60,587 nt of DNA from an uncultured Anaerolineae bacterium (lineage in GTDB: Bacteria > Chloroflexota > Anaerolineae > VGOG01): NCBI GenBank assembly GCA_964625745.1, contig CAZVCJ010000005.1, forward strand, positions 6,514-67,100, written 5' to 3'. Of the stretch, positions 2,752 to 20,720 are shown one piece after another; position 1 is the first letter of the stretch, and every line of letters starts with the position of its first letter. The notes under the pieces are model-generated. The model ran no database searches and was not told the origin of the DNA. It worked only from the letters and a program-made list of their open reading frames with translations. The position numbers were made by a program, and so were the translations under genes.

Positions 2752-3639
2752 ATGAGCAGTAAGAGCTGCGAACCAGAGCCAGAATTGAAGATCGTGCCCG
2801 TCAAAGACATCATCATCCACGAACACTTTGACAAGACCAGATCCCCTAAGCTGGCCAAAATGATCGAGAAAGCCGGGGTCTTGCAGGATCCTCCCATCGT
2901 GGCCAGGCTGGGAGGGGGAAAATACGTCCACCTGGATGGCGCCAACAGGATCACCGTATTCCGAGAAGAGAATCTGCTCAACTGCCAGCACATCCTGGTA
3001 CAAATAGTGGACTACTTCGATCCAGAGAGCGTAAAAGTGAGCAGTTGGTGCCACTTGACTCAGCAGGACAAAGGCCCTTTCCTGTCCCGACTTAAGGACA
3101 GGAGCATCGAGCCTCTACCAATGGACTGCGATGCTGCGAGAGCTCTGGTATCGGAAGGAGAGGGAGTCTTGTGCTGCCTCTTCTTCCGGGATGGAGATGT
3201 CTTCGGGGTGAAGGGCGGAAGCGATTTTGAGTCACGGGTCAAGCTAATGAACGAGGTGGTCAGGACTTATGAGGGAAGGATAGAACGCGATCATCTTGAG
3301 CCTGAAGAGGGTGATTGGAAAAGGCAAATCAATGGTCTATTTGAAAAGCACGATGATTGCAACCTGATCGTCGCTTTCCCCAGGTTTACTCCAGAACAGG
3401 TTGTGCAGATAGCTACCAATCTTGCCGTTGGTAAGAACGGAGAAAATGCAGTCAAAATGCCCCCTGGAGTAACGAGACACATCGTGTTAGAGGGTAGAGC
3501 TTTGAGGATCAACTTCCCGCTGTCGGTGCTGAAGGCAGAAGGGATGTCGTTGGAGGAGAAGAACGAGGTGCTGAAAGAGTTTCTCAGAAAGAAGAAGCCC
3601 CGGCGTTACGAAGAACCGACGTTCATGTACGACGAATAG
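2752..3639 (+). CDS. ParB/Srx-fold protein, candidate SbnI/SerK-type free L-serine kinase
   Basis: N-terminus IVPVKDIIIHEHFD...PPIV...KYVHLDGANR follows the ParB/sulfiredoxin N-domain pattern. C-terminal PPGVTRH...LRINFPLSVLK...RRYEEPTFMYDE resembles what I recall of SbnI. RBS GGGGAGGAG. Visibly AT-richer than the neighbouring genes. Confidence 0.5.
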   Translation: MSSKSCEPEPELKIVPVKDIIIHEHFDKTRSPKLAKMIEKAGVLQDPPIVARLGGGKYVHLDGANRITVFREENLLNCQHILVQIVDYFDPESVKVSSWCHLTQQDKGPFLSRLKDRSIEPLPMDCDAARALVSEGEGVLCCLFFRDGDVFGVKGGSDFESRVKLMNEVVRTYEGRIERDHLEPEEGDWKRQINGLFEKHDDCNLIVAFPRFTPEQVVQIATNLAVGKNGENAVKMPPGVTRHIVLEGRALRINFPLSVLKAEGMSLEEKNEVLKEFLRKKKPRRYEEPTFMYDE

Positions 3640-3743
3640 ATTCCCTCTAGCAGCCTGTCGGAGAGGGCATGCTCCCAGACTTCGGAAGTCTTCTCCGACA
3701 AGCTCCTGGCAGCGTAGTACACTTACTCTCCAAGGAGACTGCC

Positions 3744-6700
3744 ATGCCGATCACGCCCGAGATCATCCGTAGTCACCTGGCCGAGCTTCCCCGCCGTCGC
3801 TCCCTCGACGCCGCCCTGGAGCTCTTCGACGCCCTGGGCTACGGGTACGCCGACGAGCTGCCCCTCCCCACCCGCGACTGGCCTGCGGGCGTGCAAAGCC
3901 TGGTGAGCCAAAACGCCGAGTCCCCCATCTACCTGGCCCAGCACCGCGACTTCCACGTGGTCTACACCCACCTCACCACCGATGACCTGTTCCGTACTGT
4001 TGAACGGCCCATCGTGGAGCACACCCTGCACAAGCTGCATCCCTACGCCCTGTTCGTCTTCGCCAACCGCGACCTGACGCTGTGGGATTTCGTCAACGTG
4101 AAGTACGCGGCCGAGGACGGCGCCCGCCCCTTCGACCAGGCTCAGGGCAGGCGCCGCACCATCCGCCGCATCCACGTGGGGCCGACGGAGCGGCTGCACA
4201 CCGCCGCCCAGCGCGTGGCCCTGCTGGCCGTGCCCGCTCCCGACACCAGCGCCCTCGAACTGCAAAGCCGCCACGACCAGGCTTTCGACGTCGAAGAGGT
4301 CACCAGGCAGTTCTACCGCGACTACGTGGGGGTATTCGACGCGCTGTGCAAGGACATCGCCCGGCGCAATCCCCACTGCCCGGCCGAGATCGAGGCCCAG
4401 CAACTCCTCGACCGCCTGCTGTTCCTCTACTTCATCCAGAAGAAAGGCTGGCTCGACGGCCAACTCGACTATCTCTACCAGCACTTCCAGGCCCACTACC
4501 GGGCCGATCCAGACGGCACCAGCTTCTACGGCGATTTCCTCTTCCCCCTGTTCGTGGCCCTGTCCAACGAGGGCGCGGCCTTCCCCAGCCTGGGCGACGT
4601 CCCCTTCCTCAACGGCGGCCTGTTCGAGGTATCTGCTGACACGCCCCTGGCCGATCAACTCGTCGTGGGCAACGCGGTCTTCCATTCCGTATTCGATGAC
4701 CTGCTGGAGCGCTACAACTTCACCGTGCGTGAGGACACCCCGCTGGACGTGGAGGTGGCCATTGATCCGGAGATGCTGGGCCAGATCTTCGAGAACCTGG
4801 TGTTGGGTCTGGAGCGGGGCGAAGACCGCCGCAAGGCCACCGGCTCCTACTACACCCCCCGCGTCATCGTCCACTTCATGTGCCGCCAGGCCCTCAAAGA
4901 ATGTCTGGCCGCCGAGAGCGGCCTCGATCCCGCCCGCCTGGAAGCGCTGATGGACGTCGGCCCGGCCGAGCAGTTGACGCCAGAAGAGGTGGCTGAGCTG
5001 GGCGAGACGATCACCGAGCCGCAAGCTCGCCTGTTGCGCGGGTTGGTGGAGGGAGCGCGGGTGCTCGATCCCGCCGTGGGGTCGGGCGCTTTCCTGGTGG
5101 GGATGCTCTACCAGATGGTGGCCCTGACCAGGCTGCTGGACGTGCGGCTGCACGGTCAGAAGCGGGTGCAGCGTCGCAACTACGACTACGACCTCAAGCG
5201 GGGCTTCATCGAGCGCAACCTGTACGGGGTGGACATCCAGTCCGAGGCAGTGCGCATCTGCGAGCTGCGGCTGTGGCTCAGCCTGATGGTGGACTACGAG
5301 CGGCGGGCTGGCGAAGCAGTGCCCACCCTGCCCAACCTGAGCTACCGCGTGCGGGTGGGCGACAGCCTGATCGAGCGGCTGTTTGGCGAGCCGGTGCAAC
5401 TGGACGAGCTGGCTGACGACGCCGTGGCCCGCCAACTGATTGACCGCATCCAGACCGAGAAGCGAGGCTATTTCCAAGAGCCCAACCTGTGGGAGAAACA
5501 GCGGCGCGAGCTGCGCATCCTGGGGCTACTGTGCGAGCTGGCGGCCAAACTGGTGGGAGCCAAGCGAGGCGCCGTGCTGACCCAGATGTCGGCGCAGGTG
5601 CCCTCAATGGGTGACGAGTTTTTGTCCAGGGAGCATCGCAAACTGAAAGAAGCGTTTGAGGCGGAGCTGACCCGCTACGCCGGTCTGATGGAACAGGTGA
5701 AGGGAGTGTACGACCAGGTGCGGGCCATGCAGAATGGCGAAGTGGGGGACGTGGGCGCCCTCCGCGCCCAACTGGGGCTGTCCTTCTTATGGCGGCTGGA
5801 CTTTGCCGAGGTCTTCGCCGACAAGGGTGGGTTTGACGTGGTGATCGCCAATCCGCCGTACATCCGCCAGGAGCGGTTCTCTGACCAGAAGCCGCTGCTC
5901 AAAGCAGCCTTCACCGACGTGTACCACGGCGTGGCCGACCTGTACGTCTACTTCTATCGCCGGGGATTGGCCCTGGCCCGGCCAAAGGGTGTGCTGACCT
6001 TCATCAGCTCCAACAAGTTCTTCCGCGCCGGTTACGGTCAGGGGTTGCGCGCCTACCTGCGGGACAACACCTGGTTGAAGACCGTGATTGACTTTGGCGA
6101 CCTGCCCATCTTTGAGGCCACCACTTACCCCTGCGTGCTGGTAACTGCCAATCGTCGTCCTGGCGATGGCGAGGCGGCGGCGCAAGCGCTGAACGTGCGC
6201 AGCATGGCCACGTTGGAATACCTGGCCGACGCCGTGCAGCGCGAGGGTTGGCCCCAGCCGCAGCGAAGCCTGCGTCGTGACGGGTGGGCCTTTGAGCGGC
6301 CCGAAGTGTTGACCCTGTTGGAGAAGTTGCGCCGCAGCGGGACGCCGCTGGGGGAGTACATAGGTGGGCGGTTCTATCGGGGCATTGTAACCGGGCTGAA
6401 CGAAGCTTTTGTCATTGACCAAGCCACCCGGGACCGGCTCATGGCCGAGGATCCCCACAGTGCAGCGATCATCAAACCCTGGTTGCAAGGACGGGACATC
6501 AAACGATGGCGGGTGAATTGGCCACAGTTGTATTTGCTGTACGTAGGGTGGGATTGCAAGATCAAACGTTACCCTGCCGCCTTGGCACACCTCAAACGAT
6601 TCAAAAAGGCGTTAGCGAAAAGGCCAGAGGTCAAAGATGGACGCTTCCCTTGGTACGCCCTCAGTCGTTATGCTTCCCAGTACTACCTGGAGTTTGATAA

Positions 6701-7109
6701 ACCGAAGATAGTATGGCCTAATCTGTGTATTGAACCTCGCTTTGCTTTGGATCTTGAAAAGTGTTATGTGAGTGCCCCTGCCAATATTCTGCCTATCGCA
6801 CCGGATGAGTTATTCCTGGTAGGCATCCTGAATTCATCAGCGGTGTCTTGGTTTATGAAGCAAATCGCGGCTGAGCGAGCAGGTGGCTTTATCGAGTACA
6901 AACCCATCTACGTAACTCAGATACCCATCCCGGATACTACCCCAATCCAACGCGCCGCCATCGAAGCCCTGGTGCGCAAGCTGCTGGATGCGGAGGGCCA
7001 GGGGCCACAGGTGGCGGAGTGGGAGCGGGAGTTGAATGGGCTGGTGTATGAGTTGTATGGGTTGACGGAGGGGGACGTTGGGATGGTGGAGGGTTTGGAC
7101 CACGAATGA
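3744..7109 (+). CDS. large type IIG / PglX-like N6-adenine DNA methyltransferase with C-terminal TaqI-like specificity region
   Basis: Motifs GSYYTP, DPAVGSGAFLV (AdoMet motif I), VIANPPY (motif IV) and GIVTGLNEAFVI (TRD). Tail EWERELNGLVYELYGLTEGDV is typical of this family. ATG 3744 with AAGGAG RBS preferred over the track start 3669. I could not recognise a PD-(D/E)xK motif in the N-terminus. Confidence 0.85.
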   Translation: MPITPEIIRSHLAELPRRRSLDAALELFDALGYGYADELPLPTRDWPAGVQSLVSQNAESPIYLAQHRDFHVVYTHLTTDDLFRTVERPIVEHTLHKLHPYALFVFANRDLTLWDFVNVKYAAEDGARPFDQAQGRRRTIRRIHVGPTERLHTAAQRVALLAVPAPDTSALELQSRHDQAFDVEEVTRQFYRDYVGVFDALCKDIARRNPHCPAEIEAQQLLDRLLFLYFIQKKGWLDGQLDYLYQHFQAHYRADPDGTSFYGDFLFPLFVALSNEGAAFPSLGDVPFLNGGLFEVSADTPLADQLVVGNAVFHSVFDDLLERYNFTVREDTPLDVEVAIDPEMLGQIFENLVLGLERGEDRRKATGSYYTPRVIVHFMCRQALKECLAAESGLDPARLEALMDVGPAEQLTPEEVAELGETITEPQARLLRGLVEGARVLDPAVGSGAFLVGMLYQMVALTRLLDVRLHGQKRVQRRNYDYDLKRGFIERNLYGVDIQSEAVRICELRLWLSLMVDYERRAGEAVPTLPNLSYRVRVGDSLIERLFGEPVQLDELADDAVARQLIDRIQTEKRGYFQEPNLWEKQRRELRILGLLCELAAKLVGAKRGAVLTQMSAQVPSMGDEFLSREHRKLKEAFEAELTRYAGLMEQVKGVYDQVRAMQNGEVGDVGALRAQLGLSFLWRLDFAEVFADKGGFDVVIANPPYIRQERFSDQKPLLKAAFTDVYHGVADLYVYFYRRGLALARPKGVLTFISSNKFFRAGYGQGLRAYLRDNTWLKTVIDFGDLPIFEATTYPCVLVTANRRPGDGEAAAQALNVRSMATLEYLADAVQREGWPQPQRSLRRDGWAFERPEVLTLLEKLRRSGTPLGEYIGGRFYRGIVTGLNEAFVIDQATRDRLMAEDPHSAAIIKPWLQGRDIKRWRVNWPQLYLLYVGWDCKIKRYPAALAHLKRFKKALAKRPEVKDGRFPWYALSRYASQYYLEFDKPKIVWPNLCIEPRFALDLEKCYVSAPANILPIAPDELFLVGILNSSAVSWFMKQIAAERAGGFIEYKPIYVTQIPIPDTTPIQRAAIEALVRKLLDAEGQGPQVAEWERELNGLVYELYGLTEGDVGMVEGLDHE

Positions 7110-7272
7110 CACGAAAGGGGGCGAAAGGCACGAAAGGGCTTCGTGCTTTTCGTGGCTTTTCGCTTGTTTCGTGATCCAAAGCACCGACGCGGAGATTGAC
7201 GCGCTGGTGTATGAGTTGTATGCGTTGACGGAGGAGGAAGTGAACGTGGTGGAGGGAGTGAGGACCTCGTAG
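7040..7272 (+). repeat. tail-hairpin-tail module, copy 1 (methyltransferase 3' end, about 80-nt imperfect palindrome, second tail)
   Basis: Contains ...LVYELYGLTEGDVGMVEGLDHE*, then the palindrome 7097-7176 built from CACGAAAGG words and their complements, then a second tail AEIDALVYELYALTEEEVNVVEG. Core 7086-7238 is repeated at 9335-9490 and 10827-10985. Confidence 0.85.
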
Positions 7273-7403
7273 CCAAGGCGGACTCACTGCTAGCGCCCCT
7301 TGAGCAGGGAGACAAGTCAGAAGCCAAGCGCTTGGAAGCGGAAGTTGATCCTATGGTGCAGGCGCTATATGGAGGTAAGCAAGCCGAGTGAAAGGAGAAG
7401 CCC

Positions 7404-8360
7404 GTGTCTGAAGAGATTCACTGCGAAGTGCTTAGGATTACATGGCCCGACTGGTCGTCAGTTTCCGATGAATCGAAAGAGAACATCTGGCAAGTACTGA
7501 GCCAGCGGGTTGAGGATGGAGAAGCCCCCAGCCGCAGAGGCTTCGTGGGGGCAACCAGGTTTGAGGACATCATTGCTGGATTTTTCGCTCACGAGGGTCG
7601 CCGCTTGGGAGTTCAATATGATGAGGATTGGAACAAAGAAGATAGGGAAGCTGCAGAGTTTGAGCATCTATTCTTCGCTTTGGTTCTCAGTCAAGGACAA
7701 GTTATACTGCAGCGCAAGCGGATCGGCCGCGAGTTCGTCACGATCAATATGCGGACGATGCGACGCGAATTTTTCAATTTGCTTGGAGTGGTGTTCCAGC
7801 GTGCTGGCTTTCCCAGTGATCGCATCGTCAGGCAACCATTTCACGAGGAACGCCAAAAGGATTACCTCATCCAGATCTTCAACACTTATCCATCTACATT
7901 GATTAGAGTAAGTAACTTGTTGGGTCGGAAGGTGCCTGAAGATGTAAGACTATTCAATCCAGATATTGATAAGGATTTGATACTCAAGCAAGTGCTTAAC
8001 GGTGATTACCAGCATGTGGACGAGCTTGAAGCGAAGGCTGGGGAAACGGAGGACAGCGACCTACGGAACGCGACGTCGATTAGAGCTGCAATGCTCGCCG
8101 GAGACCCTAGAGAAGTACGAGCTATTGTAGAAGCGCAAGAGAGAACGTTCAGGAAGACCCAGCATGAACGGTTTACCATGCAGCTTGACACCGAAACGGG
8201 CGAGCAAGTCAAGGAGGCAGACCTGGACCGGGTGGTCAGAATCATACGAACAGAGTATTTCATTCCAGAGCACTTAGTGCGGTCACAGGTCAGTCTGGGT
8301 CCGTTGTTTGACTGGGCAAAAGAGAAGGATGATGCCAGCGATGACAGACAAAGTGGATGA
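7404..8360 (+). CDS. hypothetical cytosolic protein (318 aa), no recognisable domain
   Basis: GTG start preceded by AAAGGAG. AT-richer than surroundings. Its 3' end overlaps the start of the next ORF. Confidence 0.6.
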   Translation: MSEEIHCEVLRITWPDWSSVSDESKENIWQVLSQRVEDGEAPSRRGFVGATRFEDIIAGFFAHEGRRLGVQYDEDWNKEDREAAEFEHLFFALVLSQGQVILQRKRIGREFVTINMRTMRREFFNLLGVVFQRAGFPSDRIVRQPFHEERQKDYLIQIFNTYPSTLIRVSNLLGRKVPEDVRLFNPDIDKDLILKQVLNGDYQHVDELEAKAGETEDSDLRNATSIRAAMLAGDPREVRAIVEAQERTFRKTQHERFTMQLDTETGEQVKEADLDRVVRIIRTEYFIPEHLVRSQVSLGPLFDWAKEKDDASDDRQSG

Positions 8361-9300
8361 AATCAGCAAGAAACTTGTAGCGGGGCAGCCACTCGGCGAT
8401 GAAACGGATATTTCGCTCGAAGAGTTTATTGCTCTGTACCAGAAGATTGGTCAACAAGCAAACACGAAACAACGGGTTGATATCGTTCTTCTGAATGATC
8501 GCGCCTTTGTTCAATTCACAGATCTGCCACCAGGTAATGGTATAGTGTACATCAAATCAGAACGTCGCCTGACCCGTCAAGATTTCTCCCGGACGGTCGC
8601 TAATCCAGTATTTCACGGTGATGTCCTCGCCAGCACGATCAAAGAACAGATCAAGGAAGATCGCAGCAACATTTTGCTCTCTGGGGCTATTGGCCTACTC
8701 TTCACCGCTCTGCTTTTTTCACTGGGTAACTCGGTCGCTCCTAATTACCCGGCCTATTTGATCACCCCTAATAGCTTCCCAGCTACGGAACGAGCCATCA
8801 ACATGATAGTGAAGGTCAACGAGATGCTGCTGACGAGTGCAACTCTATTCCTAAGTGTTTTCCTGGTCTTCACAGTAGCTCAAAGCGCCAAGCTACAAGA
8901 GGACATTCGGCTATTCGACACCGGCCTGCTCCACAAGTTTGAGCACGACGATCGATTGGTCACTGTCATTGCCATTGTTAGTCTGATTTTGAGCGTACTG
9001 AATGTCACGCTGCTTGGCTTGCCAGTGTCCTTGGATGTCACTGCGTGGAATATGCTCGGATACACAGTCACACTTAACAAGCTTTCGCTGATAAGCCCTC
9101 TGATAACTGGTCTCACAATTGGAGCCCTGATCTACTGTTTTCTTGTCCTGTTGTATTATCTCAAGAGGATGATGCTTATCACCAATCGTGACATGAGTGC
9201 GAAAGTCTTGGAGAGAGCTCGGAGCCACCATCTCCACCATCAAGGAACTCTGCCAGCAAGTCGGGACGACGGATCAGCAGATCAAAGTGCTGGTGTATAA
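8329..9300 (+). CDS. hypothetical membrane protein: ~120-aa soluble N-domain plus four predicted TM helices
   Basis: Hydrophobic stretches ILLSGAIGLLFTALLFSLG, LLTSATLFLSVFLVFTVA, LVTVIAIVSLILSVLNVTLLGL and LISPLITGLTIGALIYCFLVLLYYL. Start ambiguous (8308 TTG, 8329/8332/8341 ATG). The last ~30 codons are read out of frame through a methyltransferase-tail remnant. Confidence 0.6.
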   Translation: MMPAMTDKVDEISKKLVAGQPLGDETDISLEEFIALYQKIGQQANTKQRVDIVLLNDRAFVQFTDLPPGNGIVYIKSERRLTRQDFSRTVANPVFHGDVLASTIKEQIKEDRSNILLSGAIGLLFTALLFSLGNSVAPNYPAYLITPNSFPATERAINMIVKVNEMLLTSATLFLSVFLVFTVAQSAKLQEDIRLFDTGLLHKFEHDDRLVTVIAIVSLILSVLNVTLLGLPVSLDVTAWNMLGYTVTLNKLSLISPLITGLTIGALIYCFLVLLYYLKRMMLITNRDMSAKVLERARSHHLHHQGTLPASRDDGSADQSAGV

Positions 9301-9515
9301 GATGTATGGGTTGACAGAGGAGGAGATTGGAGTGGTGGAGGGTTTGGACCACGAATGACACGAAAGGAGGCGAAAGGCGCGAAAGCGTTTCGTGCTTTTC
9401 GTGTTTTTTCGCTTGTTTCGTGATCCAAAGCACCGACGCGCGGAGATGGACGCGCTGGTGTATGAGTCGTATGGGTTGACTGAAGAAGAGATTGCTATTG
9501 TGAAGGGAGGGAGGA
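9255..9515 (+). repeat. tail-hairpin-tail module, copy 2
   Basis: Reads TDQQIKVLVYKMYGLTEEEIGVVEGLDHE*, then the palindrome, then AEMDALVYESYGLTEEEIAIVKGGRNE. The last tail supplies the GGGAGGGAGGA RBS and ATG of the next gene. Confidence 0.85.
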
Positions 9516-10682
9516 ATGAGTACCATTGACCTAGAAACTCTTTTGAATCTGGTCGGCACACTGGACGACAGCGACGACCCTAACAGCGCCCGCGCCCGCT
9601 TTCGGGCCTACCTGCAGGAAAGTACCCACAGCGTCGGCGACCTGCGGGCCTATGTGGACGCCGCTCTCTCCTCCAGCGGTGAGCAATACAACAAGGCACT
9701 GCAAGACCTAATCAATCACGCCGGTTACCTGCTGGGCTTTGAAGTGGAGTTCGGTCGCTATCGTGGCGTGCCGGGGCAAATTGGCTTCGATGGCCTGTGG
9801 CGTTCGCCCACCGGCCAGGCGCTAGTTGTGGAAGCTAAAACCACTGACGTGTACACCGTCAAGACGGCCACTCTTCTGGGTTACGTCAACGACCTGGTGT
9901 CTGCGGGCCAACTCGAGAGACCTGGTCAAGCCATCGGGCTTTACATCTACGGTCGGTTTGATGCTGCCACGAGCCAACTGGAGAAGGCCATCATCGCCGA
10001 GGGGCGTCAGGAACAACTGCGTGTGGCCAGCGTGGATGCGCTGTTGAACCTGCTAGAACTCAAGCAGGAATACGAATTGGAGCACGAGACAGTCTTTCAA
10101 CTCCTGCTCCCGTCTCCTGTCCGGGTGGATACCATTATCAATCTGATCTTCGACATCACCTCTCAGGAGCGACGAGCGGCGGTCGAAGAAGCGCCGGCTC
10201 TCGTACAGCCTGAACAGCCCACTGCAGAAAAGCAGATCAACTATTATCTGCTGCCAGCGGCTGATTCCGAGGATGGAATGCCCGTGTTGGAAAACCTGCA
10301 TCACTGGCTGGACCGAGGCATGTGGGGGTTGGGACAGCGCACCGGCTATCGTAAGTCTTTCCGCTCTGGCGACAGGCTGTGCTTCTACGCCGTACGCATC
10401 GGCGTCGTGGTCGAATGCACGGTCACTTCCCCTGCATTCGACCTGGACCGTAAGAAAAGCCCCAAGCCCCACCTGGAGGTGCCTTACGGCATCCGGCTGA
10501 AGGACGTGCGCTGGTTCGAGGACACCCCGATAGCTCTGACACCGGAGGTACGGGCCGAACTCAGCGCTTTCGAGGGACGTGACCTCAACAAGGGGTGGGC
10601 TTGGTTTGTGCAGGGCACAAGCAAGTTAACGGCAGAAGACTTTGAGCTTTTGACGGGGCTGAGGAAGCCTGGGCAGGGATAG
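9516..10682 (+). CDS. PD-(D/E)xK (Mrr-like) nuclease domain fused to a C-terminal EVE/PUA-like domain; candidate modification-dependent (type IV) restriction enzyme
   Basis: N-half carries FDGLW...ALVVEAKTT (D...ExK). C-half YYLLPA...WGLGQRTGYRKSFRSGDRLCFYAV...GVVVECTV follows the EVE/PUA-like pattern. Confidence 0.6.
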   Translation: MSTIDLETLLNLVGTLDDSDDPNSARARFRAYLQESTHSVGDLRAYVDAALSSSGEQYNKALQDLINHAGYLLGFEVEFGRYRGVPGQIGFDGLWRSPTGQALVVEAKTTDVYTVKTATLLGYVNDLVSAGQLERPGQAIGLYIYGRFDAATSQLEKAIIAEGRQEQLRVASVDALLNLLELKQEYELEHETVFQLLLPSPVRVDTIINLIFDITSQERRAAVEEAPALVQPEQPTAEKQINYYLLPAADSEDGMPVLENLHHWLDRGMWGLGQRTGYRKSFRSGDRLCFYAVRIGVVVECTVTSPAFDLDRKKSPKPHLEVPYGIRLKDVRWFEDTPIALTPEVRAELSAFEGRDLNKGWAWFVQGTSKLTAEDFELLTGLRKPGQG

Positions 10683-10699
10683 CGAGTCACAGAACGGGG

Positions 10700-10765
10700 A
10701 ATGATCACACTGAAAGGGTTTCAGTGGTCTCAGGGGTTTCAGTGAAGTCAGTGGTTCAGCGGACG
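10700..10765. repeat. REP-like word cluster (CACTGAAA/TTTCAGTG, CAGTGGTCTCAG)
   Basis: cacactgaaagggtttcagtggtctcaggggtttcagtgaagtcagtggttcagcgg; a related copy is at 11767-11812. Confidence 0.6.
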
Positions 10766-10767
10766 TG

Positions 10768-10988
10768 CGGAGATTGACGCGCTGGTGCATGAGTTGTATG
10801 GGCTGACGGAGGAGGAGATTGGGACGGTGGAGGGTTTGAACCACGAATGACACGAAAGGAGGCGAAAGGCGCGAAAGGGTTTCGTGCTTTTCGTGGCTTT
10901 TCGCTTGCTTCGTGATCCAAAGCACCGACGCGCGGAGATTGACGCGCTGGTGTATGAGTTGTATGGGTTGATGGGGGAGGAGACTTGA
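10768..10988 (+). repeat. tail-hairpin-tail module, copy 3
   Basis: Reads AEIDALVHELYGLTEEEIGTVEGLNHE*, then the palindrome, then AEIDALVYELYGLMGEET*. Confidence 0.85.
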
Positions 10989-11003
10989 AGTGGGAGGGAG
11001 CCC

Positions 11004-11432
11004 CTAATCTATCTGATCAGGGAACTCTTTGGCAAAGAAGTCGCGAACGGTGAGGATGGGGATGCCTGCGTACCCGCCTAGGTCCAGGAGGTGATGGTCG
11101 CCAGACACAACGCAGACGGCACCAGCGACGGTGGCACAGCGGAGGAAAACGTCATCGTCTGGGTCGGCTACCACGATGGGATCTCCTTCTGGCACCTCAA
11201 AGACAGAAGCCAGGTTCAGAGCATAAGCGACCAGTTCCTCGGAGGCCAGTCCGAGTTGCTCCAGACGAGGTTGGAGTCGTTCGTAGGACAGCACTTCAGC
11301 CAGCTCGACGAGCATAGAAGGGGCTATGCACAACTCGACTTCACCCGCTTCGGCCAGACACAGCAATTTCCAGGGCATCCCCCGCCATAGCAAACCGGAA
11401 ACCCAGACGTTGGTGTCAATCACGATGCGCAC
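11004..11432 (-). CDS. PIN-domain toxin (TIGR00305-like)
   Basis: N-terminus RIVIDTNVWVSGLL; 142 aa; GTG start 4 nt after the antitoxin stop. Confidence 0.8.
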   Translation of the reverse strand: MRIVIDTNVWVSGLLWRGMPWKLLCLAEAGEVELCIAPSMLVELAEVLSYERLQPRLEQLGLASEELVAYALNLASVFEVPEGDPIVVADPDDDVFLRCATVAGAVCVVSGDHHLLDLGGYAGIPILTVRDFFAKEFPDQID

Positions 11433-11435
11433 GGC

Positions 11436-11678
11436 TTACCTCGCTCGTCGCTGACGTCGAACCTCGTGGACGATCTCGTTGATCTCTTCCAGGGACAAAG
11501 GTTCCTCTTCTGGAGCGTGAGCCACGATACTCGTCACTGGAGGTGGCGTGACGCGCTTGAGGTGCACAGTGTCCCCTTCCACCCAGACGACGAAGCGATC
11601 TGAGGGACGAAAACGAGCGGCGACCTCTGCGGGCAGCTTCAGGGTGTGCCGTGAGGTTAGTTCGGCTATCTCGACCAT
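11436..11678 (-). CDS. AbrB/SpoVT-type antitoxin (80 aa)
   Basis: MVEIAELTSRHTLKLPAEVAARFRPSDRFVVWVEGDTVHLKRV is a swapped-hairpin AbrB-like pattern. ATG at 11678 with GAGGAGG RBS. The longer track ORF (to 11987) runs through repeats and is rejected. Confidence 0.7.
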   Translation of the reverse strand: MVEIAELTSRHTLKLPAEVAARFRPSDRFVVWVEGDTVHLKRVTPPPVTSIVAHAPEEEPLSLEEINEIVHEVRRQRRAR

Positions 11679-11924
11679 CTTGGCCTCCTCATTCGGTAAG
11701 TAGACTGCTTTGGATAGTATACTATATCCACTACACGATGTCAATCTTGTGCTGGAGTGGGAAGGGGCCTCAGTGGTCTCAGAGGCTTCAGCGGGGTCAG
11801 TGGTTAAGGGGACGAGGCAACGGATGGGAGCGGATACCAGGGAGGACGCAAGTGACTTCCAGGAAAATAATCCCCCAAAAACACCGATGATTATTGCTGC
11901 CTGGGCTCTGGATCTTCGCCGACC

Positions 11925-12060
11925 GCACGGGCATGAAGTGCCCGTGCTACAGAACAGCGCCCGATAAATCGGGCTCTTCGCCGCCAAATACCCAGAAAAC
12001 CATCGTTCAAGGGTGATTTATCACCCGCTACTCCGTAGCCCGACGACTTCATCGTCGGGC
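11925..12060. repeat. cluster of four perfect short hairpins (REP/BIME-like) with CTAC/GTAG flanks
   Basis: GCACGGGCatgaagtGCCCGTGC (11925-11947), GCCCGATaaATCGGGC (11959-11974), GGGTGATttATCACCC (12011-12026) followed by gCTAC, and GTAG + CCCGACGActtcaTCGTCGGG (12034-12060). Confidence 0.7.
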
Positions 12061-12267
12061 GGGTCGTGGCAACCTTGGGAGGTTTCGAATTCTGGAATTC
12101 CCTAACCCCATACACAGCTTCTAACAATTGGGCAAGAAATAAAGACGGGATTGATGGTACTCCACCAACTGCATCACCAATAGCACCCAAGGCGCCATAG
12201 ACACAGGGGAAAACCCTCCCGTCAACGACTGCTATTATAGCACATTTCCTTCCGAAAGGAAAACCAA

Positions 12268-15200
12268 ATGCCCCACGACATCATAGACAACCGCACGCGG
12301 GAGCTGGCTCCCGAAATCAACAACTTCCTGGCCGATAGCATCCGCGCCCACTTCGCCGTCGGCTATTTCTTCCTGTCGGGCTTTCAGGCCATCGCCGAGC
12401 ACATCCCCCACCTGGATCAACTGCGCCTGCTCATTGGCAACGTCACCAATCGCCAGACTATCGAGCAACTGGCCGAGGGCACCCACCACCTGGCGACCCT
12501 GCAACGGGCGGTGCGCCGCGAACGGATGGCCTCCGCCCAGGCTCCTCTCATCCGCGCTGAGACCGCCGACTCCATCCAGACCACCCTGGAGCTTCTGGAC
12601 CAGACCGACGACGCCCAGGCCCTGGTGCTCTCCCTGGCCGACCTCATCGCCCAGGGCAAGGTGCAGGTGAAGGTCTACACCCGCGGCCGCCTGCACGCCA
12701 AAGCCTACCTGTTCGACTTCGACCCGGCCCGCATCCGCGCCCAGACCGGCGCGGCCATCGTGGGCAGCTCCAACCTGTCGCTGGGCGGCGTCAGCCACAA
12801 CACGGAGCTCAACGTCCGCGTGTTCGGCGACGGCAACCACGCCGAGCTCTCCCGCTGGTTCAACGAGCTGTGGGACGAAGCCGAGGACTTCGACGCGGAC
12901 CTGATCCGCGAGCTGCGCCGCTCCTGGGCCGCCAGCCAGGTGCCCACCCCGGCAGGCCTCCGCCCTGTCAGCCCCCACGACGTCTACCTCAAGACCCTCT
13001 ACACCCTGGTCAAGGACCGGCTGGAGGGCCGCCGCGACACGGAGCTCCTGTGGGAAGCGGAGATGCCGGAGCTGGCCGACTTTCAGCGGGTGGCCGTCCG
13101 CCAGGCCGTCAAGATCCTGGATACCTACCACGGCGTCTTCGTGGCCGATGTGGTGGGCCTGGGCAAGACCTACATCGGCACCACCCTGCTCAAGCACTAC
13201 GCCCTCTATCGCGGCGCCCGCCCGCTGGTGGTCTGCCCTGCCTCGCTGGTGGAGATGTGGGAGTGGTTCATGGAACGCTACCAGATTGACGCCCCCGTCA
13301 TCTCCATGGGCCTCCTCAGCCAGAAGGGCCACGAGCGGATGCTGGCCGACAACTGGCGCTACCGTGACCGCGATCTGGTGCTGGTAGACGAGTCCCAGAA
13401 CTTTCGCTACGGTGATACCCAGCGCTACGCCGCCCTGCAATTGTTCACCCAGACCCGGCCCACCATCCTGCTGACCGCCACGCCCCGCGCCACCACCGCC
13501 TGGGACATCTACCACCAGATCAAGCTCTGGCATCCCCAGGATACCACCAGCATCCCCATTAACCCGCCCAACCTGCCGGAGTTCTTCCGCAAGGTGGAGC
13601 CGCGCAACGAGGAGCCGCCCAGCCGTGACCTGCAGGAGATCCTCAACCACGTCCTCATCCGCCGTACCCGCCACCACATCCGCACCTACTACCCCGACGC
13701 CCAGATCAACGGCCAGCCCCTGGTCTTCCCCGACCGCGAGTTGGAGACCATCACCTACAGCATCGAGGACACCTACCGTGCCCCGGGCGACACGGCGGGG
13801 GAGAGCCGCGTCTACCAGCGCCTGCACGACCTGATGGGCCAGCTCACCTACGCCCGCTATGCCCTGTTCGACTACGTTCTGCCCGAACACCAGCACGAGC
13901 CTAATTACGGGGAACTTCAACGAGCGGGCGCTGCCCTGCGCGGTCTGATGCGGGTCATGCTCTTCAAGCGTTTCGAGTCCAGCGTCCACGCCTTCCGCCA
14001 GACCGTCAACCGCCTGCGAAACCTGCAGCGCGCTTTCCAGGGCGCGCTGGACCGCGACCTGGTGCCCGCTGGCGACGAGGCCACTGACATCCTCTACAAG
14101 TCCGACCTGGACGACGAAGCCACTCTGTACCAGGCCCTGGAGAAAGCCAGCATCCGCTACCCCATCAGCGACTTCGACGTGCCCAAACTCCAGGGCGCCC
14201 TGGACACCGACATCGCTCTCCTGGACGAAATGGCCCGCCTGGTGGAGCCCATCGGCCCCCAGGAGGACAACAAACTCCAGCAGCTCATGGCCCTGATGGC
14301 CGGGAGCCGCACCCTGCCCGGCGATCGTTCGGCTGAGCGCTCACGACGAAGCCTGCTCCACGGCAAGGTACTCATCTTCACCCAGTACGCCGACACTGCC
14401 CACTACCTCTACGACAACCTGAGGCCCCTGGGCCGCATCCGCGCCGTGGAGAGCGGCACCACCGACCTGGCCCGCGTCATCCTGCGCTTCGCTCCCAAGG
14501 CCAACAACTATCAGCTCCAACCCGGCGACGAAGAGCTGCGCATCCTGGTCTCCACCGACGTCCTCAGCGAGGGCCTCAACCTGCAGGACGCCAACCACGT
14601 CATCAACTACGACCTGCACTGGAATCCCATCCGTCTCATCCAGCGCGTGGGCCGCGTGGACCGCATTGGCACCGAGCACGATACCATCTACGCCTACAAC
14701 TTCCTGCCTGAGACCGGCCTGGAGCGCGAGCTGGGCATCGAGCAGCGCCTGGAGCACCGCATCGCCGACATTCACCGCACCATCGGCGAGGATGCCCCTG
14801 TTCTACACAAGAGCGAGCAGATCAACGCCGAGGCCATGTACGCCATCTATCGGGGCGATCCCAGCGTTTTTGAAGACGAACCCGAGCCCGACATCTTCAA
14901 CCTGCTGGAGGCGGAAGAACTCATGCGCCAGCTCCAGCGCACCGACCCCGACCGCTTTCAGGAGATCGCCACCATGCCCGACGGCATCCGCAGCGCGCGT
15001 CAGGCGGTTGGCGAGCCTGGCCCTTCGGCGAGCTCAGGACAGGGCCTGTTCGTCTTCTGCCAGGCGGGCAGCTACCAGCGCCTCTACCTGGTTGACCAAG
15101 CGGGTCATCGCACCGCAGATCCTCAGCGGGCCATCCACGCCATCCGCTGCGAGGAAGACGAGCCTACCCTGGCGCTGCCTGCCGGCATCAACCAGCGCAT

Positions 15201-15576
15201 CGCCGCCGTCAAACGCGACTTCGACGCCGAGGTTCGCGCCCGTGAGGCCGAGATACGCCACAGAGTAGGCACAGCCCTGGGTCGCGACTACGCCCTGGCG
15301 GAGCTGCGCCTCATCTTCGATGCCGAAGAGGACCCGGAGGAAAAAGCTCGTCTAACCCTCCTGTCCGAGATTCTCACCACTGTCCCATTGACCGCCCGCG
15401 CCCATCGTGAGCTCAACAACCTGCGTCGCAGCAGGATCACCGGCCTGGCCTTGATCGAGCAACTCCTGCGCATCGTCCGTGACTACAACCTGGAGGAGGC
15501 CCACCATATCATCGCCGACCGGGCTGAGGAAGCACCGCTGATCCCACGTATTGTTTGTAGTGAGGCGCTGTTGTAG
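12268..15576 (+). CDS. PLD-family (single HKD) nuclease domain fused to an SNF2-family helicase
   Basis: N-domain RLHAKAYLF...IVGSSNLSLGG (HKD motif). Helicase motifs DVVGLGKT (I), LVLVDESQNFR (II), ILLTATP (III), LSEGLNLQ (V) and QRVGRVDRIG (VI). Confidence 0.85.
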   Translation: MPHDIIDNRTRELAPEINNFLADSIRAHFAVGYFFLSGFQAIAEHIPHLDQLRLLIGNVTNRQTIEQLAEGTHHLATLQRAVRRERMASAQAPLIRAETADSIQTTLELLDQTDDAQALVLSLADLIAQGKVQVKVYTRGRLHAKAYLFDFDPARIRAQTGAAIVGSSNLSLGGVSHNTELNVRVFGDGNHAELSRWFNELWDEAEDFDADLIRELRRSWAASQVPTPAGLRPVSPHDVYLKTLYTLVKDRLEGRRDTELLWEAEMPELADFQRVAVRQAVKILDTYHGVFVADVVGLGKTYIGTTLLKHYALYRGARPLVVCPASLVEMWEWFMERYQIDAPVISMGLLSQKGHERMLADNWRYRDRDLVLVDESQNFRYGDTQRYAALQLFTQTRPTILLTATPRATTAWDIYHQIKLWHPQDTTSIPINPPNLPEFFRKVEPRNEEPPSRDLQEILNHVLIRRTRHHIRTYYPDAQINGQPLVFPDRELETITYSIEDTYRAPGDTAGESRVYQRLHDLMGQLTYARYALFDYVLPEHQHEPNYGELQRAGAALRGLMRVMLFKRFESSVHAFRQTVNRLRNLQRAFQGALDRDLVPAGDEATDILYKSDLDDEATLYQALEKASIRYPISDFDVPKLQGALDTDIALLDEMARLVEPIGPQEDNKLQQLMALMAGSRTLPGDRSAERSRRSLLHGKVLIFTQYADTAHYLYDNLRPLGRIRAVESGTTDLARVILRFAPKANNYQLQPGDEELRILVSTDVLSEGLNLQDANHVINYDLHWNPIRLIQRVGRVDRIGTEHDTIYAYNFLPETGLERELGIEQRLEHRIADIHRTIGEDAPVLHKSEQINAEAMYAIYRGDPSVFEDEPEPDIFNLLEAEELMRQLQRTDPDRFQEIATMPDGIRSARQAVGEPGPSASSGQGLFVFCQAGSYQRLYLVDQAGHRTADPQRAIHAIRCEEDEPTLALPAGINQRIAAVKRDFDAEVRAREAEIRHRVGTALGRDYALAELRLIFDAEEDPEEKARLTLLSEILTTVPLTARAHRELNNLRRSRITGLALIEQLLRIVRDYNLEEAHHIIADRAEEAPLIPRIVCSEALL

Positions 15577-20049: not shown

Positions 20050-20388
20050 TCATGCTGGTCTATTGATCCGAATCAGCCTACCCGCAAGTGAGTCATGAGA
20101 CTCGATTGCCTCATGAATGCGACTTGCCTGGCCAGTGAAGTCTAAGTCAACAGTGCATGCGATTATCCCTTTGTGCTCTGAGGATACCCCATGTAAGCGG
20201 ATGAAGTGTTTACGATTGATAGTCAATACGGCTCTATCGTCTGCACTGGCGGATGCCAACACCGCTTCATCTGGACACTCTTGATTCGCCTTGCCTGCCT
20301 CTTGAATTGTCAGTACATCGTGCCCTAATCGCCTGAGTTCCTCAACAACTGGCAAAGGGAAGTTCTCATTTGAGTACAAGCGAGCCAT
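20050..20388 (-). CDS. DUF5615-like (PIN-like/Mut7-C-type) putative toxin
   Basis: LYSNENFPLPVVEELRRLGHDVLTIQEAG...DEAVLASA..DDRAVLTINRKHF matches the DUF5615 pattern; it begins 3 nt after the DUF433 gene. Confidence 0.65.
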   Translation of the reverse strand: MARLYSNENFPLPVVEELRRLGHDVLTIQEAGKANQECPDEAVLASASADDRAVLTINRKHFIRLHGVSSEHKGIIACTVDLDFTGQASRIHEAIESHDSLAGRLIRINRPA

Positions 20389-20390
20389 GT

Positions 20391-20720
20391 TTATGCCGCC
20401 TCGTTTTCAACGATTTGTTGCTCGATTTCGCGCCGATGTGAACGGTAATAAGCCCAAGCGTTGGTCAAGTCCTCTGAGCGTAAGGTTGGATAACATCGGA
20501 GCAGGTCTGCTTCGCTGGCTCCAAGTTTCCTGAGTTGCACTAATACCCATACCGGAATACGAGTGCGTACAATGCGCGGTTCACCGCCACATATTCCGGG
20601 GGTGCTCTCGATCCCAGGAAAGGCGCCGCCAAGGTCGCGGACAATCCGCTGAAGCAATCGAGCCTTCTCTGTGCGTGTCATTGTAGAAAGCAACTGTTCT
20701 GCTGTTCGCATTGCCGTCAT
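20391..20720 (-). CDS. DUF433 putative antitoxin
   Basis: PGICGGEPRIVRTRIPVWVLV core of DUF433; ATG at 20720 (or 20711). Confidence 0.7.
   Translation of the reverse strand: MTAMRTAEQLLSTMTRTEKARLLQRIVRDLGGAFPGIESTPGICGGEPRIVRTRIPVWVLVQLRKLGASEADLLRCYPTLRSEDLTNAWAYYRSHRREIEQQIVENEAA

Follow-up and report, generated by a model that had tools for sequence, protein, structure and literature searches.

How does a row of unrelated genes come to stand behind a single DNA methyltransferase gene, with copies of the last codons of that gene at the joints? The question is raised by a 60.6-kb stretch of DNA from an uncultured Anaerolineae bacterium (the window, whose positions serve as coordinates below), in which a gene for a type IIG-like N6-adenine methyltransferase (MTase) is followed at some distance by a gene for an HKD(PLD)-SNF2 helicase-nuclease. 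Between these two genes lie three cargo blocks, split by three tail-hairpin-tail units (Table 1). By tail we mean the ~60-90-nt 3' end (the last ~25 codons) of a large and diverse family of type IIG-like MTase genes. The tail probably acts as portable homology through which general recombination, together with target-duplicating insertion, would stack, swap and remove cassettes.

Tails and hairpins in the window

A repeat search recovered a 228-nt unit three times in the window (7030-7257, 9279-9506 and 10771-10998), with 71-86% identity in ungapped comparison. A sequence-only reading of this DNA, made before the present analysis, had described three near-identical units of ~155 bp; the number stands, and the size has to be corrected to ~228 nt. 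When the three units are aligned the mean column identity is 84%, and the hairpin core is nearly invariant. Each unit runs from a tail ending in ...VEGL(D/N)HE and a stop codon, through a ~90-nt hairpin (hp1) and GCGGAGATTGACGCG, to a second tail. The imperfect palindrome noticed earlier in each unit is this hp1, an imperfect hairpin of CACGAAAGG-type words and their complements with DNA folds of -22.0 to -28.4 kcal/mol; the left arm of its first copy encodes the codons LDHE and the stop.

Both elements are specific to the locus within the window. Six copies of the 26-nt tail core are present within 3 mismatches and three copies of the hairpin left arm, each against 0.00 expected from shuffles. 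Consistent with the earlier count of six or possibly seven tail copies, a tblastn scan found six clear tails and one decayed. The tails are 66-78% G+T and 5-11% C, compared with 30% C window-wide, and use codons that are rare in this genome (TTG, 12% of Leu; TAT, 20%; GGG, 23%; ATT, 15%). All six contain GCTGGTG, seven of the eight bases of the E. coli Chi site. No known RNA family was found in 6800-12400 at E <= 0.1.

The cargo genes are interlocked with the tails, as the sequence-only reading had observed at two joints. The second open reading frame (ORF) of cargo 1, of the four-transmembrane (4-TM) type, has its stop codon at 9298-9300, within the 9290-9327 part of tail A2 and in another frame. 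The ATG of cargo 2 (9516) and a GGAGG motif lie inside the reading frame of tail B2, which stops at 9527-9529.

Two further roles for the hairpins were considered and rejected. hp1 is not a dispersed repeat, a repetitive extragenic palindrome or a miniature inverted-repeat transposable element, as it has three copies in 60.6 kb, all at this locus and always beside tails. A second hairpin type, hp2, is not a working hairpin in the window, where only right-arm remnants are left and these do not fold.

Arrays in other genomes

Across 185,579 species, each represented by one genome, the hp1 arm had three matches, all on contigs of Chloroflexota/Anaerolineae metagenome-assembled genomes (MAGs), all between tails and with differing neighbour genes. 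Metagenome loci were retrieved by the exact 26-nt pattern of the tail core, which at least 119 stretches matched; the survey set consists of 122 loci from other assemblies among the matches listed (L-numbers are locus labels), and the counts below are of matches listed. Locus L003 reads MTase-tail, 539-aa gene, tail-hp1-tail, 70-aa gene, tail, and in L002 a HicB-like gene stands after the second tail. Cargo is not required, since L001 (62-870), from a Chloroflexota MAG, holds a cargo-less tandem array of tail-hp2-tail-hp1 with a period of 323 nt that abuts an adenine deaminase gene. No viral carrier was found, as the tail core and the hairpin arm each had 0 matches in 2.9 million viral contigs.

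The arrays are polar. Taking an ORF of at least 300 aa upstream of the tail as a genuine MTase end, the 122 listed loci contain 48 genuine ends, 175 orphans and 20 tails that run off the contig and fall in neither class. A tail on the opposite strand within a locus was seen in 0 of 122, and the array patterns range from A, AO and AOO up to AOOOOO (A, MTase end; O, orphan), with an orphan before the MTase in only 2 loci. Tail spacing is bimodal, either ~160 nt (tail-hairpin-tail) or 0.65-2.5 kb, with a median of 1197 nt. A strong hairpin follows 27 of 235 tails (~11%). The element common to the junctions is therefore the tail and not the hairpin.

Word-repeat hairpins were also seen 3' of MTase stop codons in L118, L122, L092, L041, L049, L012, L103 and L007. 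They have the same architecture with different words (CACGAAGGG, CGCGAAAG, CACTGAA), the stop codon lying inside the first or second word.

The cargo is diverse. The 95 cassettes contain 175 ORFs of 60 aa or more, of which 137 run in the direction of the tails; the 175 proteins form 141 clusters, 115 of which are singletons. Families that recur include GmrSD, OLD/Gabija-type ATPase-TOPRIM, AbiEii-type AAA_21, DUF5677, Schlafen/AlbA_2 and PIN, and further Mrr, S_4TM, CAP12 TIR, KAP NTPase and DUF559. Judged by family assignment, these are typical defence genes.

As the sequence-only reading had stated for the vicinity, gene calls over the first ~25 kb of the window include no recombinase. Recombinase families are likewise missing from the 25 commonest Pfam families (each with at least 2 matches) of 122 array-flanking proteins and from the 25 commonest Pfam families of 131 cargo proteins.

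Two transposases were encountered. One DDE_5 transposase is present among the 131 cargo proteins, and an IS200-type Y1 transposase (L133:9388-9828) lies among the genes embedded between MTase and helicase in that locus.

Boundaries and decay of the tails

The two edges of the tail behave differently. On the right, similarity ends at a fixed point, the stop codon, ~50-60 nt past CTGGTG, and conservation is at background by +70. On the left, similarity fades gradually and the edge varies: blastn puts it at 10-170 nt, and at the protein level the MTase-like stretch retained in 153 orphans is 114 nt long in the median, 272 nt at the 90th percentile and 513 nt at most.

Conservation of the tail extends to its DNA sequence. 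Among 46 non-redundant genuine MTases with the core, identity is 28% over 245 upstream codons and 68% in the tail, and the same codon is used at identical residues with a frequency of 0.59 in the tail flanks compared with 0.40 in the gene body, the exact 26-mer sampling inflating both contrasts. Variation within the tail is concentrated at third codon positions. Orphans carry more non-synonymous changes and 25 stop codons in 170 tails, compared with 0 in 47 genuine tails. Accordingly, they are decaying fragments, and the idea that orphan tails are functional peptides was rejected on the same evidence.

The next gene most commonly starts with a 4-nt overlap of the tail stop codon (ATGA), seen in 25 of 130 cases with no more than 3 at any other offset. 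Just 5' of such starts are GGAGG motifs, which form part of the last tail codons. Tails of the same locus resemble each other more than tails of different loci do, with similarities of 0.67 and 0.56, respectively, in the 5' half and 0.71 and 0.65 in the 3' half (0 of 300 label permutations reached the observed within-locus likeness). The pattern agrees with a 5' half that stays in place and a 3' half that comes in with the cargo.

Exchange of cargo between tails

Breakpoints fall inside the tails. Up to tail position +52, the MTase genes of L010 and L109 share 99.1% identity across 1272 nt; the mismatches start within the tail core, and both loci then continue with unrelated cargo. Tail B2 of the window combines a 5' half of the type that follows hp1 with a 3' half (GAAGAAGAGATTGCTATTGTG, EEEIAIV) of the type linked to the EVE gene (cargo 2), which is shared with L023 and L101. 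Among the window, L023 and L101, homology of the EVE cassette begins ~12-32 nt 5' of the tail core and continues as far as the gene end. This cassette also changes place, being found directly behind the genuine MTase in L101 and L133, and behind orphan tails in second (L023) or fourth (L135) position. The sequence-only reading had suggested that cargo was serially inserted, or exchanged, behind the 3' end of a single gene and that every event regenerated a tail; both the moved EVE cargo and the tail breakpoints of L010 and L109 support that proposal.

The other two blocks of the window have also been found elsewhere. The cargo-1 pair recurs in L126-L128, L129 and L130. With L130 the window has in common the block and its trailing tail, tail A2 and the tail of L130 being of common descent; between the same two cargo blocks there is a single tail in L130 compared with tail-hp1-tail in the window. 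A remnant comparable to the decayed tail of the window (LEWEIDARVAELYG) sits before the cargo-1 homologue in L126. The PIN/antitoxin block of cargo 3 stands behind a tail in L119, L036 and L012 as well.

Orthologous MTase/helicase loci with wholly different cargo between conserved tails were found in L082, L046, L012, L038, L114 and L126. The helicase of L046 is 93% identical to that of the window, and the two loci have no cargo in common. A comparison of orthologous loci had been suggested by the earlier reading, as had the loss of cassettes by recombination between the direct repeats, for which these comparative data provide support. An identical arrangement in relatives, with unvaried cargo, would have contradicted that reading; contigs of the window's own population do share its arrangement, but the orthologous loci differ in cargo.

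Some joints are of another kind. L119 (45-360) and L012 (3880-3960) contain 5' fragments of the helicase gene, 261 nt and 51 nt long, fused to a tail at different points and followed by the PIN/antitoxin block and then the full helicase gene. On their sequences, the two fusions read as independent, illegitimate joins. The orphan helicase heads indicate that the downstream partner gene also leaves duplicated fragments; no 5' head fragment of the helicase is present in the window. The hp2 hairpins of the window are cut, which was counted as an illegitimate join as well. Such joins and the continuous spread of the left boundary argue against a recombinase with a fixed crossover.

In L067, L117, L050, L068 and L023 the MTases are ~90% identical N-terminally (5' 0.6-1.7 kb), but from the specificity-domain region onwards they differ, and so do the tail and the cargo behind it. 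Therefore, specificity domain and cargo may be exchanged together.

How the arrays may form

The likely origin of such arrays is as follows. Defence genes would normally sit directly behind the tail in an operon, with the ATGA overlap as the commonest junction. General RecA-type recombination between tails, on different molecules or within one array, would act together with occasional target-duplicating joins, and the result would be the stacking, swapping, duplication and deletion of tail-plus-cargo blocks. Under this scenario the outcome would be a polar, one-strand array of the MTase and then tail-cargo units, here ahead of the HKD-SNF2 partner. hp1 would be a terminator-like sequence behind the MTase stop codon in this lineage, copied along with the tails as a cargo-less block, and would not be the recombination site. 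The anatomy and polarity of the arrays, the variable left and fixed right boundary, the shuffling of cargo, the breakpoints in tails and the lack of a linked recombinase are observations; we infer that the enzymology is that of general homologous and illegitimate recombination, and recombination between tails could bring a distal cassette beside the MTase.

Several points weigh against this explanation. Contigs of the window's own population that were compared share one layout, with no circle, deletion variant or empty site among them, and a strict empty site was not found for any cargo cassette. In L126 and L133 cargo is embedded without intervening tails or with decayed ones; therefore tail-based stacking is not the only route. 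The conservation peak is a ~55-nt core, and a recombinase site would look alike. Tails within an array are only modestly more alike than tails across loci, and retrieval by the exact 26-mer inflates apparent tail conservation and biases the sample to one lineage and one codon version. The first step, the origin of the second tail, is one that we infer, and a recombinase may be encoded elsewhere in the genome, which would be compatible with the contig data.

Alternative explanations

Site-specific recombination resembling that of integrons or tycheposons could also produce such loci, with the tail core as attachment site, circles excised and inserted at the tail, and a recombinase that is encoded elsewhere or is an activity of the MTase system. 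Polar, co-oriented arrays of diverse, ~1-kb, mostly single-gene cassettes would be expected of it, and the conservation peak in the ~55-nt core and the chimeric tails, in which each half is tied to the adjacent block as at integron cassette joints, speak in its favour. However, the recombinase is missing from the regions and family lists surveyed above, the left boundary is continuous from ~10 to ~500 nt, and hairpins are truncated and helicase heads fused to tails at differing points. The tail itself shows no folding (z = -0.55) and a strong hairpin follows few of the tails, for which reasons it was rejected as an attC-like site; its third-position variation is that of inherited coding sequence. 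We consider this explanation unlikely.

A bolder version, which we hold to be quite unlikely, is an undescribed cassette-capture system that works in the manner of an integron. The tail would then be a true recombination site, served by a recombinase or nuclease encoded elsewhere or by the MTase/helicase-nuclease pair, and the system would build and reshuffle anti-phage libraries and set which of their members couples to the MTase.

Tails might instead be functional leaders for cargo expression with no role in recombination, their 3' half (GAGGAGGAG...GTGGAGGG) providing a Shine-Dalgarno sequence and translational coupling. That ATGA overlaps are the commonest junction, that GGAGG motifs occur in the last tail codons and that the 3' half travels with the downstream cargo all agree with such a function. 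But ~15-20 nt would suffice for ribosome binding, and orphans retain the full core and a median of 114 nt upstream. Tails also occur where there is no cargo to lead (tail-hairpin-tail units, the L001 tandem array) or where the cargo is on the opposite strand, as with tail B3 before the PIN/antitoxin pair. No sigma-70-like promoter was found inside the tails, the sole strong site being that of the PIN/antitoxin pair on the minus strand. Given these points and the recombination breakpoints inside tails, the leader explanation is improbable.

Ordinary decay would start from tandem modules of an MTase and a partner gene, in which all MTases but the first were deleted down to their ends. Each tail-plus-cargo block does resemble the end of an MTase operon, the same block is found behind a full-length MTase elsewhere, and the orphans are decaying. 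The sequence-only reading had named remnants of tandem paralogues as the finding that would speak against it, and the data do not bear this out: remnants retain at most 513 nt (median 114) of ~3-kb genes, with no long intermediates among the 153 orphans. Orphans outnumber genuine ends, 175 to 48, and a second full-length MTase lies inside the array in only 2 loci. Tail-hairpin-tail units, cargo-less tandem arrays and differing cargo behind 99%-identical MTases would be left unexplained, making decay a very improbable account.

That assembly joined contigs of different genomes at a shared repeat is hardly credible: the tail is common to many genomes of the same communities, but the window layout recurs on 12 contigs from independent ENA and JGI samples and assemblers, the repeats are 71-92% identical and not exact over the k-mer length of 141, and the MAG contigs L001-L003 share the architecture.

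Relation to known systems

Integrons have attC sites at every cassette junction, imperfect palindromes of 57-141 nt with RYYYAAC ... GTTRRRY ends, and beside the array an IntI-type tyrosine recombinase, which is not required for clusters of attC sites lacking an integron-integrase (CALIN). The arrays described here are like integrons and CALIN in their co-oriented, compact, diverse ~1-kb cassettes beside a fixed platform and in a junction repeat that is split between neighbours. They differ in that no linked integrase was found and in that the junction is an unfolded fragment of a coding gene, of variable length. The ends of hp1 (GTTTGGA ... TCCAAAG) do not match the attC consensus.

Orphan cdiA-CT/cdiI and rhs-CT/rhsI modules of polymorphic toxin loci also form arrays, and the mechanism put forward for these is that the conserved sequences recombine with one another (Poole et al. 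2011, PMC3150448). As there, a full-length gene is followed here by same-strand orphans that each start with a short conserved 3' fragment, and the orphans of one genome are attached to the full-length gene in another. In the Rhs/CdiA loci, however, the fragment continues in frame into a variable toxin domain, each module pairs a toxin with its immunity gene, and the anchor is a secreted toxin. In our arrays the fragment ends at a stop codon, one to three separate genes, mostly of defence type, make up the variable part, and the anchor is a DNA methyltransferase.

Restriction-modification genes can be inserted with direct target duplications of 46-423 bp in the absence of mobility genes (Furuta, Abe and Kobayashi 2010, PMC2853133). 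The present loci likewise have defence genes between direct repeats (>30 bp) that copy the target, are of variable length and have no transposase or integrase. Each of those insertions happened once, and their targets were scattered; here one target, the end of a single gene family, is reused for up to six cassettes, and the repeats then serve as homology shared between genomes.

In gene content the locus recalls BREX and BREX-related (BR) loci. According to PMC12839542, these can carry auxiliary or 'backup' effectors (nucleases, OLD-family ATPases, PIN, Schlafen) between MTase and helicase-nuclease. Type-2 BR loci, as described in that paper, combine an N6-adenine methyltransferase with a helicase bearing an N-terminal HKD nuclease, and the window has both. 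By contrast, the DUF499 AAA+ ATPase and standalone DUF3780 that define Type-2 BR there are not among the Pfam matches in window positions 1-16.8 kb. A term search of the text of PMC12839542 found gene content described and did not find MTase-tail repeats or cassette boundaries. The tail peptide motif was not found in any paper, and a keyword search for tail-delimited defence cassettes gave no relevant result; thus, we found no prior description of tail-delimited arrays in the literature.

If the tail acts as portable homology, the arrays would provide a structural rule for one class of defence island, namely that blocks are stacked at the MTase gene end with a recognisable DNA signature at each joint. 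This signature can be searched for, and genes enclosed by it are strong candidates for anti-phage functions of new kinds, because 115 of the 141 cargo clusters are singletons and several have no known family, including two of the three cargo blocks in the window. The orphan-module logic of polymorphic toxin loci and the long-target-duplication mobility of restriction-modification genes would thereby extend to whole defence genes, and a result resembling that of integrons may be reached with no recombinase dedicated to it.

Genes of the locus and its surroundings

The positions of the features are collected in Table 1.

Table 1. Tails, hairpins, cargo blocks and bordering genes of the array in the window
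Feature	Position	Strand	Sequence, match or fold
Type IIG-like N6-adenine methyltransferase (MTase), 1146 aa, array anchor	3669-7109	+	Pfam Eco57I, TaqI_C, N6_Mtase; PADLOC REase_MTase_IIG, E = 6e-111
Tail A1, genuine	7008-7109	+	QVAEWERELNGLVYELYGLTEGDVGMVEGLDHE and stop; tblastn match 7008-7106
Hairpin hp1, copy 1	7092-7182	+	CACGAAAGG words; DNA fold -28.4 kcal/mol, z = -6.5; terminator-like
Tail B1, orphan	7174-7272	+	IQSTDAEIDALVYELYALTEEEVNVVEGVRTS and stop; tblastn match 7174-7260
Decayed, divergent tail remnant just 5' of cargo 1	7326-7392	+	KRLEAEVDPMVQALYGGKQAE and stop; tblastn match 7326-7388, E = 0.003
Cargo 1, two-gene pair: 318 aa (7404-8360) and ~319-aa membrane protein (8341-9300)	7404-9300	+	
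Tail A2, orphan, longer MTase remnant	9254-9358	+	QQVGTTDQQIKVLVYKMYGLTEEEIGVVEGLDHE and stop; tblastn match 9254-9355
Hairpin hp1, copy 2	9341-9431	+	DNA fold -27.0 kcal/mol, z = -4.9; terminator-like
Tail B2, orphan, chimera	9440-9529	+	tblastn match 9440-9508; holds GGAGG motif and ATG of cargo 2
Cargo 2, 388-aa protein	9516-10682	+	homologues named 'EVE domain-containing protein' by NCBI
hp2 right-arm remnant (second hairpin type, CACTGA words)	~10703-10766	+	repeat search; no fold
Tail A3, orphan	10767-10850	+	AEIDALVHELYGLTEEEIGTVEGLNHE and stop; tblastn match 10767-10847
Hairpin hp1, copy 3	10833-10923	+	DNA fold -22.0 kcal/mol, z = -3.0; terminator-like
Tail B3, orphan, truncated	10932-10988	+	AEIDALVYELYGLMGEET and stop; tblastn match 10932-10982
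Cargo 3: PIN_3 toxin (11004-11432), 80-aa putative antitoxin (11436-11678), promoter-like site (11716-11744)	11004-11744	-	Pfam PIN_3
hp2 second fragment, no tail after it	11761-11800	+	repeat search; no fold
HKD(PLD)-SNF2 helicase-nuclease, 1102 aa, distal array border	12268-15576	+	Pfam PLDc_2, SNF2-rel_dom, Helicase_C; PADLOC 'HKD+Snf2', E = 6e-66

The HKD-SNF2 helicase-nuclease is likely the partner of the MTase in one restriction-modification-like system, with the cassettes between the two, since L082, L126 and L133 each contain an orthologue of the one gene together with an orthologue of the other. An exact look-up of the MTase protein of the window gave no recorded match.

The cargo-1 proteins had no family match in Pfam, NCBIfam, PADLOC or PDB sequences. 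Cargo 2 has more than 617 homologues, some of which carry the NCBI name 'EVE domain-containing protein' (43-60% identical). The sequence-only reading had labelled it a nuclease-EVE gene; the EVE part of that label fits the name of the homologues, and neither the EVE nor the nuclease part is confirmed by Pfam, NCBIfam, PADLOC or PDB-sequence matches. The PIN gene placed by the same reading after the third unit is borne out by its Pfam family, and the promoter-like site of cargo 3 matches at 11 of 12 positions.

In L131 (7001-10763) a homologue with 76% identity to the EVE protein is encoded immediately 5' of a type IIG enzyme of the MmeI type; the element that contains them also carries an integrase and a primase-like gene. 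Given this pairing, the EVE protein may be a functional partner of type IIG enzymes generally.

The genes flanking the locus are housekeeping genes, for serine metabolism upstream and an aminotransferase downstream. A 295-aa gene (2752-3639) between serA and the MTase gene weakly resembles SbnI/SerK-type serine kinases (ParB-like fold) and probably belongs with the serine-metabolism genes, outside the defence locus. A DUF433/DUF5615 gene pair, which we take to be a putative toxin-antitoxin pair, lies ~4.5 kb 3' of the helicase gene on the minus strand (~20050-20720) and was seen in the gene calls of L123 only.

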